DNA from: a virus
Lineage: Duplodnaviria; Heunggongvirae; Uroviricota; Caudoviricetes
Reading direction: 5' to 3' (one strand)
Length of the DNA: 5,109 bases
Virus record (IMG/VR): IMGVR_UViG_2695420889_000019
Part shown: one piece after another, positions 358-2,558 of the stretch
Numbering within the stretch: the first letter of the stretch is position 1
How the letters are laid out: each line of letters begins with the position of its first letter
The notes under the pieces: generated by a model
The model's database searches: none
Told to the model about the DNA's origin: nothing
Seen by the model: the letters and a program-made list of their open reading frames with translations, nothing else
Made by a program: the position numbers and the translations under genes

Positions 358-879
358 ATGCGCATGAATGTTTTCGAAATGGAAGGGTTTCTTCGCGGGA
401 AATGTGTACCGCGAGATCTGAAAGTGAACGAAACAAATGCTGAGTACCTAGTACGTAAGTTCGACGCGCTTGAAGCTAAATACGAGACGCTGGCGGCGGA
501 GAATGCGCGGCTGAATAAATTTATCGTACAGAGTTGCTATGTGTTTAATGGCGAGCAGGATGAAATATCTGATGCGTATATCTGCGCAGCAGGCGGAGGT
601 ATGCCGCAAATTCCAGCCACCGATGCTTTTCTGGCTGAAATTCGTGCGGAGGCTCGCAACGAGGGAATTAACTATACCGCAAGTCGTCTTGCTGCTGCTT
701 TCAACCACGGATTTATCAATAAGTCTTTACGTGAAGTTTTCGACGTTACGCGCATGATTCTGTCAGCGAAAGAAGAGTTAGCTAATGAACCGCATCCGAT
801 TGATGGCCTGTCCGGTGAATATGCGGAGAAATCCCTTGAAGAATGGGCGGAGCAGATTCGCAAAGGAGGCAACCAGTGA
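358..879 (+). CDS. Lambdoid-prophage early protein, possibly YbcN-family (weak recollection); predicted coiled-coil near the N-terminus
   Basis: 173-codon ORF; GGAG at 346-349 lies 8 nt before ATG 358. An alternative start at ATG 364 (MNVFEMEG...) overlaps the stop of a possible upstream mini-ORF. Its TGA (877-879) overlaps the GTG start of the next gene. My recollection that YbcN-type proteins begin MNVFEMEG is unverified. Confidence 0.7.
   Translation: MRMNVFEMEGFLRGKCVPRDLKVNETNAEYLVRKFDALEAKYETLAAENARLNKFIVQSCYVFNGEQDEISDAYICAAGGGMPQIPATDAFLAEIRAEARNEGINYTASRLAAAFNHGFINKSLREVFDVTRMILSAKEELANEPHPIDGLSGEYAEKSLEEWAEQIRKGGNQ
866..879 (+). repeat. Direct repeat copy 1 of GAGGCAACCAGTGA (RBS plus GTG start plus stop-overlap junction)
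   Basis: Identical 14-mer at 866-879 and 1347-1360, with similar flanks (AAAGGAGGCAACCAGTGAC versus AAAGAGGCAACCAGTGAG). Confidence 0.9.
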
Positions 880-1364
880 CTGGACATGCAGCAATCCTCG
901 ACATGTGCTGTGGCAGTCGCATGTTCTGGTTCGATAAGAATGACGACCGGGCGATATTTAGCGACATCAGAAAGGAAGAGCACACATTATGTGATGGACG
1001 ACGCCTGATAATTAGCCCTGACCTGATAGCAGATTTTCGTGCATTACCATTTGCAGACGCATCGTTTCCGGTTGTTGTATTCGACCCTCCGCATCTTGAG
1101 CGTGTTGGTGATAACGCCTGGATGGGAAAGAAATATGGACGGCTGAATAAAGATACCTGGCGTGATGATTTGCGGCAGGGATTTAAAGAAGCCTTTCGTG
1201 TGTTGTGGCCAAACGGTGTTCTGGTTTTTAAATGGAATGAAACGCAAATACCGGTAAGCCAGATTTTGGCACTGACAGACAGAAAACCTGTTATCGGTCA
1301 ACGAACAGGAAAAAACGATAAAACCAACTGGATTATTTTTATGAAAGAGGCAACCAGTGAGTAA
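876..1364 (+). CDS. Minimal SAM-dependent methyltransferase (162 aa), Rossmann core with G-rich motif I and DPPH motif IV; putative phage orphan DNA methyltransferase
   Basis: GTG 876 is preceded by AAGGAGG (863-869) at 6 nt spacing. Motif I-like ILDMCCGS sits at residues 7-14 and VVVFDPPH ends at residues 70-73 (nt 1083-1094), the spacing and order of class-I MTases such as RsmD or gamma-class N6-adenine enzymes. No room for a target-recognition domain. An in-frame ATG at 843 has a poor RBS and is less likely. Confidence 0.7.
   Translation: MTGHAAILDMCCGSRMFWFDKNDDRAIFSDIRKEEHTLCDGRRLIISPDLIADFRALPFADASFPVVVFDPPHLERVGDNAWMGKKYGRLNKDTWRDDLRQGFKEAFRVLWPNGVLVFKWNETQIPVSQILALTDRKPVIGQRTGKNDKTNWIIFMKEATSE
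1347..1360 (+). repeat. Direct repeat copy 2 of GAGGCAACCAGTGA
   Basis: See copy 1. Together the two copies bracket the methyltransferase ORF exactly. Confidence 0.9.
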
Positions 1365-1668
1365 TTATCTGTACTGTTCTGGCTTAGTGGCTAACATCGC
1401 GCTCATGTTGTTCGTGGCTCTTTGCATCTGGGTTTGGTTTATCTGGCCTTTTGTAGAGGCCATGAGCATAACTCGGTGCTTTATTTGCGCATCAAAGACT
1501 TCTGGATGCAAACCAACTGTAAGAGCAATTATCAGAACTTTAAAATACTGGTATCTGGATTTGCTTTTCGGCAGGGGCTGGACGCGAATTAGTAACCGCC
1601 AGTTTGAATGGGAAGGCGTCGGTAACTGGCGAATTCACAGCAGCAAAGAAACGCAGGAGGTGAAGTAA
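1357..1668 (+). CDS. Small hypothetical membrane protein (103 aa), Trp-rich N-terminal transmembrane segment
   Basis: GTG 1357 is preceded by AAGAGG (1345-1350) at 6 nt spacing and overlaps the MTase stop; its TAA (1666-1668) overlaps the ATG of the exonuclease (TAATG). The ORF exactly fills the gap between its neighbours. Hydrophobic stretch LVANIALMLFVALCIWVWFIWPF. No family recognised. Confidence 0.5.
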   Translation: MSNYLYCSGLVANIALMLFVALCIWVWFIWPFVEAMSITRCFICASKTSGCKPTVRAIIRTLKYWYLDLLFGRGWTRISNRQFEWEGVGNWRIHSSKETQEVK

Positions 1669-2240
1669 TGAATAACTTAATGATCGACCTTGAGACGATG
1701 GGGAAAAATAAGGATGCACCGATCGTTTCCATTGGCGCGGTGTTCTTCACTCCAGAAACCGGAGACATCGGACAAGAATTCTATACGGTTGTTAGCCTGG
1801 AAAGTGCTATGGGGCAAGGAGCTACACCTGACGGCGATACCATCCTGTGGTGGTTGAAACAAAGCCCTGAAGCACGAGCTGCAATCTGTATTGATGATAC
1901 TTTGTCGATCCGCGATGCTCTCTCAGAACTAAATCATTTCATTAACCGGCACGCAGACAATACGAAATATTTAAAAGTCTGGGGTAACGGAGCCACCTTC
2001 GACAACGTAATTTTACGTGGAGCTTATGAGCGAGCAGGACAAATCTGCCCGTGGGCATACTGGAATGACCACGATGTACGCACGATCGTTACGCTTGGGC
2101 GTTCCATCGGATTCGACCCCAAAATGGACATGCCTTTCGATGGCGAACGGCACAACGCCCTGGCTGATGCCCGTCATCAGGCAAAATATGTTTCCGCTAT
2201 CTGGCAGAAATTAATTCCTGCCACCAGCACAGAATTATGA
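1668..2240 (+). CDS. DEDDh-type 3'-5' exonuclease (DnaQ-like fold, phage-encoded)
   Basis: AGGAGG (1655-1660) lies 7 nt before ATG 1668. Exo I-like motif MIDLETMG (D-x-E) at the N-terminus, Exo II-like WGNGATFDNVIL, Exo III-like HNALADARH near the C-terminus. Resembles small phage/mycobacterial DEDD exonucleases (Rv2179c-like), from memory. Confidence 0.8.
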   Translation: MNNLMIDLETMGKNKDAPIVSIGAVFFTPETGDIGQEFYTVVSLESAMGQGATPDGDTILWWLKQSPEARAAICIDDTLSIRDALSELNHFINRHADNTKYLKVWGNGATFDNVILRGAYERAGQICPWAYWNDHDVRTIVTLGRSIGFDPKMDMPFDGERHNALADARHQAKYVSAIWQKLIPATSTEL

Positions 2241-2276
2241 TTTTCCCGGGTGCAGCCGGTTTTGATGGAGAAAATT

Positions 2277-2558
2277 ATGAACACCTTGTTTTTACTGATG
2301 GCTGAATTCAATACCCCTAACATTGAACTCTCAGCAGTTAGCCAAAAGTACTTTGGCATGAGTCCAGCCACGGCAGAAGCAAAAGCAAACGCTTGTAAGT
2401 TGCCCGTTCCAACATATCGCATCGGCACATCACAAAAAGCAAAACGTTGCATCAATATTCAGGATCTTGCGGAATACATAGACAAAAGACGAGAAGAAGG
2501 ACGTATCGAGTGGGAACAGGTCAGAACAAGCAAACAGAAGGGCAAAGAACATCACTAA
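2277..2558 (+). CDS. PrtN-family (pyocin-activator-like) / excisionase-like small DNA-binding regulator
   Basis: GGAG (2267-2270) lies 6 nt before ATG 2277. Product MNTLFLLMAEFNTPNIELSAVSQKYFGMSPATAEAKANACKLPVPTYRIGTSQKAKRCINIQDLAEYIDKRREEG... matches the N-terminal signature I recall for PrtN-like prophage proteins. The track ORF begins at GTG 2250 and there is an ATG at 2265, but neither has a comparable RBS. Confidence 0.7.
   Translation: MNTLFLLMAEFNTPNIELSAVSQKYFGMSPATAEAKANACKLPVPTYRIGTSQKAKRCINIQDLAEYIDKRREEGRIEWEQVRTSKQKGKEHH

Follow-up and report, generated by a model that had tools for sequence, protein, structure and literature searches.

Do five genes that overlap or nearly abut one another close to the end of a prophage make up a set whose products act together, or are they neighbours that have come to share a transcript? 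The question is raised by a 5,109-nucleotide (nt) stretch of DNA from a tailed phage (IMG/VR record IMGVR_UViG_2695420889_000019; hereafter "the window", by which we mean the stretch at its full length), in which five open reading frames (ORFs) follow one another on the plus strand at positions 358-879, 876-1364, 1357-1668, 1668-2240 and 2277-2558. They encode, in this order, an EaE/Ea22-like protein (ORF1), a small methyltransferase, a membrane protein of 103 amino acid residues, a 3'-5' exonuclease and a protein of the PrtN family. An initial annotation, made from the sequence alone, had read them as a translationally coupled early operon whose members, not being random neighbours, fitted a DNA-metabolism or anti-restriction module with a PrtN-like regulator. 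The comparisons described here lead to another picture. The five ORFs are very probably the tail, far from the promoter, of an early-left (pL-type) operon that ends in an excisionase gene, and this operon belongs to an SfV/mEp460-like prophage in the dusA gene of Escherichia coli. The tidy-looking "module" is a rare combination out of a stock of accessory genes that undergo shuffling. The locus itself is ordinary; this end of a dusA prophage had been sequenced before, most of it is annotated, and it is disabled here by the insertion sequence IS600. The value of the analysis is mainly corrective; the only points that we consider worth following up are a pattern of short linkers at the gene junctions and a family of unannotated membrane proteins.

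A lambdoid prophage in dusA

From position 270 to position 5109 the window is 100% identical to the genomes of E. coli O145:H28 strains RM12581 and RM13514. In RM12581 the block lies within a lambdoid prophage of roughly 47 kb and shows the order ymfK (which encodes a cI-like repressor), yfdP, yfdQ, yfdR, the five ORFs, two reverse-strand genes and a 105-nt fragment of the 5' end of dusA, beyond which come the host genes for a DUF2713 family protein, zur and lexA. The opposite end of this prophage, 47 kb away, carries dinI and a tyrosine integrase gene that abuts an intact dusA, and between the two ends lie head, tail and lysis genes and the effector gene nleG7. The same order is seen in phages mEp460, 720R4 and Lys8385Vzw, in which the exonuclease gene and the PrtN-family gene are followed by two or three reverse-strand genes, the phage attachment site (attP) and the integrase gene (int); the similarity of mEp460 to the window ends at 3763. 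The element is a lambdoid prophage of the SfV/mEp460 type, and its integration site is the 5' end of dusA in E. coli. Phage mEp460 is mentioned in the literature that was searched only in prophage-typing reports.

The probable tail of an early-left operon

The anatomy of the five ORFs is that of the far end of a longer unit. At 358-367 the stop codon of yfdR (TGA, 365-367) lies across the start codon of ORF1 (ATG at 358), and because of this overlap the unit must be taken to extend upstream of 358. Farther along, ORF1 and the methyltransferase gene share the sequence GTGA at 876-879 (start GTG 876-878, stop TGA 877-879), the methyltransferase and membrane protein genes overlap by 8 nt (GTG 1357-1359, TAA 1362-1364), and the membrane protein and exonuclease genes meet in TAATG at 1666-1670. 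These three overlaps, on which the initial annotation had built its operon, are exact on the sequence. The last gene is set apart by a 36-nt spacer, from the exonuclease stop at 2238-2240 to an ATG at 2277. All five ORFs have family support, and a Shine-Dalgarno site is found 6-8 nt 5' of each start (GGAG at 346-349, AAGGAGG at 863-869, AAAGAGG at 1344-1350, AGGAGG at 1655-1660 and GGAG at 2267-2270). That the overlaps imply stoichiometric translation, as had been claimed, does not follow from them, since each gene has a Shine-Dalgarno site of its own and two of the starts are GTG. Nor do tight junctions single out these five genes, because such junctions are usual along the whole early-left operon of the relatives; from gp33 to gp25 of mEp460, most junctions overlap or lie within 10 nt.

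A consensus scan of 358-2558 found no promoter-like or terminator-like sites on the plus strand. In RM12581 a candidate promoter, TTGACA-16-CATAAT (11/12 to consensus), stands directly after the terminator behind ymfK, and between it and ORF1 the consensus scan again found no terminator-like site on the plus strand. By analogy with lambda, we infer that this site is the pL equivalent and that in intact relatives the five ORFs form the distal third of an early-left transcript of ~6 kb (yfdP-yfdQ-yfdR-...-rdfN, where rdfN is the PrtN-family gene). The arrangement by which a lambdoid early-left operon can be recognized, a same-strand string of genes that leads from a repressor-adjacent promoter to an excision gene close to the attachment site (att), is present in RM12581, mEp460 and 720R4. 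The earlier view of the region as phage DNA and as part of an early transcription unit, here one of the pL type, is supported. From their anatomy it is plausible that the five ORFs are co-transcribed and translationally coupled, but the operon is not self-contained as had been supposed; it would be the tail of the ~6-kb unit.

The unit is bounded by a hairpin at 2562-2587 (-18.1 kcal/mol, z = -4.5), a terminator of the bidirectional intrinsic type between the convergent rdfN (plus strand) and a gene for a 57-residue protein (minus strand). Of the single terminator that the initial annotation had placed after the last gene, the strong hairpin is there, but the consensus scan scored it as a terminator on the minus strand only, because the tail on the plus strand consists of just four U (UUUUC).

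In the window itself, the operon has lost its upstream part. Positions 1-271 (minus strand) are the left end of IS600, a member of the IS3 family, with 98.6% identity to the IS600 of RM12581 and with the terminal inverted repeat ending at 271; the N-terminus of its orfA transposase (1-207; HTH_Tnp_1, 2e-18) points away from the operon. The boundary between IS600 and phage DNA at 271/272 falls 96 nt before the end of yfdR, so that what is left of this gene for an HD-family 5'-deoxynucleotidase is its last 31 codons and stop (272-367, plus strand), as recognized from the translation and from the annotation of RM12581 and of mEp460 gp33. As far as can be judged from the sequence, IS600 separates the operon from its promoter, and for this reason the five genes are probably silent or weakly expressed in the genome from which the window derives. 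The yfdR gene of RM12581 is likewise interrupted by IS600, at another site and in the opposite orientation compared with the copy in the window, and the IS600/phage junction of the window is absent from all complete E. coli genomes of the collection.

The last gene as a probable excisionase gene

The gene at the end of the operon, rdfN (2277-2558, plus strand), encodes a protein of 93 residues that matches the PrtN family model PF11112 at 3e-23 (82 bits, where the cut-off is 24.2; model positions 1-73 of 74) and the PHROG family phrog_1300, "excisionase", at 1e-39. A GTG at 2250 was considered as an alternative start and rejected; it has no Shine-Dalgarno site, the Pfam match begins at residue 3 of the version that starts at ATG 2277, and PGAP uses 2277. 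The orthologue in mEp460, gp25, is annotated as an excisionase, and the PrtN-family gene is the sole gene of excisionase type annotated in the examined region of mEp460 and Lys8385Vzw, in both of which int is flanked by attP and dinI. A sequence search of the PDB with RdfN gave nothing usable. Homologues of prtN have been reported in 60/94 dusA islands, with their role unknown (Farrugia et al., PMC4482086), and in a dusA element of Vibrio the deletion of rdfN abolishes excision, for which Int and RdfN are sufficient (Durand et al. 2021, PMC8409611). Three of the features by which a protein can be assigned to this group, namely a single PF11112 domain, a home in a dusA 5'-end element with a tyrosine integrase, and a gene that lies apart from int, are found here, and rdfN holds the place of lambda xis, at the end of the early-left operon that is nearest to att. 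On the strength of the PF11112, PHROG and mEp460 labels, the Vibrio data and the xis-like position, the last gene is read as the probable gene for RdfN, the excisionase or recombination directionality factor (RDF) of the dusA-specific integrase.

Among the alternatives to be weighed, the one that survives best, although we regard it as rather unlikely, is that the PrtN-family protein serves chiefly to activate the transcription of late or lysis genes, like PrtN of Pseudomonas aeruginosa, with or without a role in excision. The family name and the Pfam match lean this way, and so does the general experience that several RDFs, including P2 Cox, P4 Vis, TorI and AlpA, also control transcription. 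Before 2021, moreover, the role of these proteins in dusA islands was held to be regulatory or unknown (PMC4482086). Against an activator stand the need for the dusA-element homologue in excision and its sufficiency together with Int (PMC8409611), the occupation by the gene of the lambdoid xis position, the agreement of PHROG and the mEp460 record on the label "excisionase", and the fact that the RM12581 prophage already encodes its own Q-type antiterminator (ydfT) for late genes. The "PrtN-like regulator" of the initial annotation is thus best read as the RdfN of a dusA-integrating element (PMC8409611) and not primarily as a regulator, and the same label, which RefSeq applies in hundreds of E. 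coli prophages, would have to be read as a dusA-phage excisionase. The Vibrio study left open what drives rdfN in prophage-like dusA elements (PMC8409611); its position at the end of a repressor-controlled early-left operon suggests that the driver is derepression of the early-left promoter.

With RdfN as the excisionase, the following course of events can be proposed for an intact relative. Upon loss of the cI-like repressor, the promoter just behind the repressor gene would fire and give rise to one long transcript through yfdP, yfdQ, yfdR, variable accessory cassettes, the DEDDh exonuclease gene and rdfN, which would stop at the hairpin at 2562-2587. RdfN would be made only after derepression, because rdfN is read from this transcript, and it would make the dusA-specific integrase, constitutively available and encoded at the far end of the prophage, excise instead of integrate. 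ORF1 and the genes for the orphan amino-methyltransferase, the membrane protein and the exonuclease would be optional cargo, and the linkers between them, each with a Shine-Dalgarno site, a spacer and a stop/start overlap, would provide for tight translational re-initiation and would coincide with points of cassette exchange.

One rare draw from a pool of cassettes

If the five genes were instead a co-adapted module for DNA metabolism or anti-restriction, with products acting together in fixed ratios, their tight packing and overlaps would be in keeping with it, as would the cataloguing of the methyltransferase family among Type II or orphan DNA methyltransferases, the intact state of the exonuclease, and the presence of all five genes, intact, in RM12581-like strains. 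The distribution of the genes speaks otherwise. The whole block (at least 80% covered) was found in only 10/5426 complete E. coli genomes and parts of it in 3243, and in a set of 78 viral contigs chosen for a last gene (rdfN) that is at least 98% identical, the exonuclease gene occurs upstream of rdfN in 69, the gene for the 103-residue protein in 8, the methyltransferase gene in 6, and all four upstream genes together in 4. The two middle genes assort independently of each other, with the methyltransferase gene present without its neighbour in Stx2c_EH0430 and the membrane protein gene present without the methyltransferase gene in 720R4. Relatives of the mEp460 type are 96-98% identical to the window over 270-481 (the end of yfdR) and 1652-3763 (from the exonuclease gene through rdfN and the cargo to att), and the middle of mEp460 differs from the C-terminal part of ORF1, the methyltransferase gene and the 103-residue gene of the window; in their place stand five unrelated genes (gp31, gp30, an Ea22-like gene, gp28 and a DUF551 gene). 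E. coli O157:H7 has a decayed copy at the same site, with an internal stop in the methyltransferase gene, a truncated exonuclease gene and an intact rdfN. Exonuclease and rdfN are the only stable pair, and the five genes are an uncommon combination of accessory genes that can take one another's place and do not form a conserved module; the claim that they are not random neighbours is at odds with these counts, and joint action in fixed ratios seems to us very improbable.

The places at which homology between relatives breaks off lie on the gene junctions (at 1344 for 720R4, at 1364 for Stx2c_EH0430, and at 1652 for mEp460 and Lys8385Vzw), and short linker sequences are found at these junctions. 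The first copy of a 17-nt linker, AAGGAGGCAACCAGTGA, occupies 863-879 (plus strand) and consists of a Shine-Dalgarno site, a 6-nt spacer and the overlapping GTG start and TGA stop; the second, AAAGAGGCAACCAGTGA, at 1344-1360 (plus strand), is 16/17 identical to it. The two copies flank the methyltransferase cassette, and the number of such repeats expected by chance is 0. The AAGGAGGCAACCAGTGA motif is also found at junctions in four relatives and, as an exact match, in at least 120 IMG/VR loci, and its 117 usable viral occurrences connect 21 classes of upstream ends with 37 classes of downstream starts in 75 combinations. The linker is conserved at the level of the nucleic acid, because homologues toggle its reading frame or are fused through it. 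The methyltransferase of the window reads copy 2 in a frame that differs from the canonical one (…KEATSE*), a close homologue of this enzyme reads its linker canonically (…KEGNQ*), and another is fused through the linker to an Ea22-like protein.

A second type of linker, CGCAGGAGGTGAAGTAATGAATAACTTAATGA, is 32 nt long (1652-1683, plus strand); it takes in a Shine-Dalgarno site and the TAATG overlap and runs through codon five of the following gene (MNNLM), with the consensus CGCAGGAGGTGAAGTAATGAAyAACTTAATGA. In the window it precedes the exonuclease gene; in Stx2c_EH0430, where it is an isolated 32-nt match, it precedes a gene for an AlpA/Xis-like helix-turn-helix protein. Similar sequences can be found in lambda, in which the 3' end of ea22 (29847 region) reads ATTCGCATCAAAGGAGAGTGA (…IRIKGE*) and resembles the linker of the window, and in which the terminal sequence of the gene, AAAGGAGAGTGA, is related to it. 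The conserved "+GE" tail of Ea22 proteins has been reported to be of unknown significance (PMC7093339). To judge from these resemblances, the tail may be the footprint of a junction that bears a Shine-Dalgarno site.

It has long been known that the mosaic genomes of lambdoid phages are joined at gene boundaries, and the linker junctions are a clear example of this boundary mosaicism and not a new principle. A further step, which we offer tentatively and with more doubt than belief, would be to regard them as DNA-level "cassette linkers", selected for the swapping of accessory genes by short-homology recombination with the translation signal kept. If true, this would explain the shared ...RKGGNQ* tails on unrelated proteins, the other-frame reading of the linker by the methyltransferase and the "+GE" tripeptide of Ea22, and it would offer a testable picture of linker-mediated cassette exchange in an exo-xis-like region of the prophages of Shiga toxin-producing E. 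coli.

Several considerations tell against the account given so far. Recombination promoted by the linkers is deduced from the pattern of breakpoints, which could also reflect common descent of Ea22-like paralogues together with selection on ribosome-binding sites. Co-transcription and the assignment of pL lean on consensus scans and on the lambda analogy, and on the plus strand the hairpin at 2562-2587 makes a weak terminator. The role of an RDF is known from the 76-residue Vibrio homologue, not from the 93-residue protein of the window, and a secondary regulatory role for RdfN is possible, given that some RDFs also regulate transcription. Finally, the tight linkage of exonuclease and rdfN (69/78) might be functional.

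The four accessory genes

ORF1 (358-879, plus strand) encodes an EaE/Ea22-like mosaic protein of 173 residues that matches phrog_614 over its full length (3e-77). An N-terminal module is followed by a coiled coil, and the protein ends in ...AEQIRKGGNQ*, the tail of the family, with a leucine-zipper-like segment at residues 29-54; residues 1-45 match phrog_583, and the C-terminal part matches phrog_368 and phrog_492. The N-terminus does not read VSKIDYQALRE but belongs to the EaE/YfdS type, and its module is held in common with a 120-residue yfdS-type protein, the C-terminal ending is like that of 21 classes of ead/Ea22-like family members, and the homology to the Eae protein of Lys8385Vzw is piecewise. 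A sequence search of the PDB with this protein gave nothing usable. PGAP annotates only the first 135 nt (358-492), as a pseudogene that lacks its C-terminal part, and the possibility that ORF1 is a broken pseudogene was considered and rejected in view of the end-to-end match to phrog_614 and the recurrence of the full-length gene, which is found in 15/78 related contigs. What RefSeq gives as a pseudogene fragment is a recurrent full-length mosaic.

The second gene (876-1364, plus strand) encodes a small class I S-adenosylmethionine-dependent methyltransferase of 162 residues (phrog_954, 2e-87). Motif I reads LDMCCGS (residues 8-14) and motif IV reads FDPPH (69-73), with DPPH invariant, and because of motif I and the invariant DPPH the enzyme is assigned, from its sequence motifs, to the amino-methyltransferases (N6-adenine / N4-cytosine type). 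It is too short to include a separate target-recognition domain and has no restriction gene next to it, and for these two reasons we regard it as an orphan. In PHROG and PADLOC the family goes under the names of DNA, Type II or orphan methyltransferase, "DNA" being a matter of the names alone; the fold matches are generic, with RNA amino-methyltransferases (TrmN) scoring equally, and a PDB sequence search found no relatives. Phages of Gordonia, Corynebacterium, Streptococcus, Listeria and Porphyromonas encode proteins to which it is 50-63% identical. For a phage DNA methyltransferase, such identity across phages of Actinobacteria, Firmicutes, Bacteroidetes and Fusobacteria is unusually high, and some of the enterobacterial homologues reach 248 residues by way of a C-terminal extension of 85 residues.

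The third gene (1357-1668, plus strand; GTG start) encodes the 103-residue single-pass membrane protein (phrog_2531, 1e-26). RefSeq annotates nothing between 1364 and 1668 of the corresponding RM12581 sequence, no Pfam or NCBIfam model matches the ORF, and the start codon is GTG, all of which could be taken to mean that there is no gene here and that the operon has an untranslated gap of 300 nt; this we find scarcely credible, given 31 protein clusters (31-72% identity over the aligned length) that share the start M, the length and the invariant motifs WVWFIWPxVEAxS, FGR and WEGVGxW, the finding of the gene by tblastn in 612 phage records, a phrog of its own, a Shine-Dalgarno site 6 nt upstream, and a consistent AlphaFold2 (AF2) model that resembles family members in BFVD. 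The records come from several genera and include virulent Salmonella, Escherichia, Serratia and Erwinia phages. In the model (pLDDT 75.6) a long transmembrane helix (residues 2-48) is followed by a second helix (55-70) and a hairpin; it gave no fold matches in the PDB, and its BFVD matches are uncharacterised phage members of the family only. To judge from this conservation, the ORF is a genuine gene of a family of single-pass membrane proteins, as the initial annotation had assumed, and one that RefSeq misses. Part of the stretch bears the label "pentatricopeptide repeat-containing protein" in phage 720R4. With low confidence, the product can be pictured as a membrane-anchored early protein that acts on a component of the host envelope or in exclusion, and the family, whose members come from both temperate and virulent phages of enterobacteria, may serve in host takeover or in exclusion as a factor not yet characterised; the guess that it is Kil-like found no support either for or against.

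The fourth gene (1668-2240, plus strand) encodes an Rv2179c-like DEDDh 3'-5' exonuclease of 190 residues that matches PF16473 at 4e-75 over positions 1-177 of 177. Its catalytic residues are complete in the translation (D7, E9, D112, H162 and D167). There is a distant sequence match (1e-10) to PDB entry 8kel, an "exodeoxyribonuclease", and the NCBIfam model for RNase AS scores far under its cut-off, as part of a search in which NCBIfam gave no matches above cut-off for any of the five genes. PADLOC reported no defence system, only methyltransferase models and a weak DEDDh match, and the literature that was searched for phage exonucleases of the Rv2179c-like kind offered nothing of relevance.

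The attachment site and neighbouring features

The displaced 5' end of the native dusA gene, 35 codons long, lies at 3656-3760 (minus strand) and includes the prophage/host junction (att); PGAP annotates it as "tRNA-dihydrouridine synthase, missing C-terminus". Its DNA is 82% identical to the corresponding end of the intact dusA on the far side of the prophage. The displaced native start encodes MHGNSEMQK…APMLD, and the intact gene begins with a phage-supplied surrogate that encodes MHDNHETLK…APMLD; a model in which the 5' end of dusA is replaced has been described (PMC4482086). The copy in the attP of mEp460 is of the native E. coli dusA type (97.5% identical), which suggests, as a reading of the sequences, that exchange between the two repeats has taken place.

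Between rdfN and att, at 2606-3512, are two reverse-strand cargo genes for proteins of 57 residues (phrog_2741) and 178 residues (phrog_4350), neither of which has a Pfam, PDB or PADLOC match. The content of this slot varies, with a gene for a Panacea-domain protein in strain 998 and two other genes in Lys8385Vzw, and it may be a hotspot for morons or defence genes. Beyond att, a 13-bp AT-rich hairpin at 4056-4085, with runs of T on both sides, stands 3' of the host DUF2713 gene (4123-5109, minus strand; low GC, about 33%) and is probably its terminator. Rfam and ARAGORN found no RNA genes in the window; the weak Rfam matches all fall on hairpins of the terminator type, mostly that at 2562-2587.

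Comparison with known systems

The exonuclease is like T4 DexA and Rv2179c of Mycobacterium tuberculosis in having PF16473 at full length and a complete set of DEDDh motifs. P. aeruginosa PrtN and the RdfN of the window are both PF11112 proteins of similar size under the control of a DNA-damage-sensitive repressor; PrtN turns on pyocin promoters via P boxes, whereas here no such role is called for and the genomic context points to site-specific recombination. Closer to our case is the RdfN of IMEVchUSA3 from V. cholerae (PMC8409611), which is also a small PF11112 protein of a dusA 5'-end element and is encoded by a gene that does not adjoin int. The two differ in length (76 residues in Vibrio, 93 here), in the promoter of the gene, which is responsive to AcaCD in IMEVchUSA3 and would be a phage early promoter here, and in the nature of the element, a mobilisable island in the one case and a tailed prophage in the other.

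The same operon frame can be followed through mEp460 (gp33-gp25), SfV, 720R4, Lys8385Vzw and the K-12 prophage CPS-53 (yfdP-yfdQ-yfdR-yfdS), and its best-known parallel is the distal part of the lambda pL operon, where orf60a, orf63, orf61, orf73, ea22 and ea8.5 are followed by xis (PMC7093339, PMC4195576). As in lambda, small, mostly dispensable and variable early genes, among them one for an Ea22-family protein, are governed by a repressor-controlled leftward promoter and lead to an excision factor encoded next to the att site. Unlike lambda, no exo, bet or gam is seen here, the excision factor is of the PrtN family and not Xis, and int does not follow the excision gene on one transcript; it is found past attP, with a terminator and convergent genes in between, and hence at the opposite end of the prophage. 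By this analogy, we regard the region as the counterpart of the lambda exo-xis accessory region plus xis.

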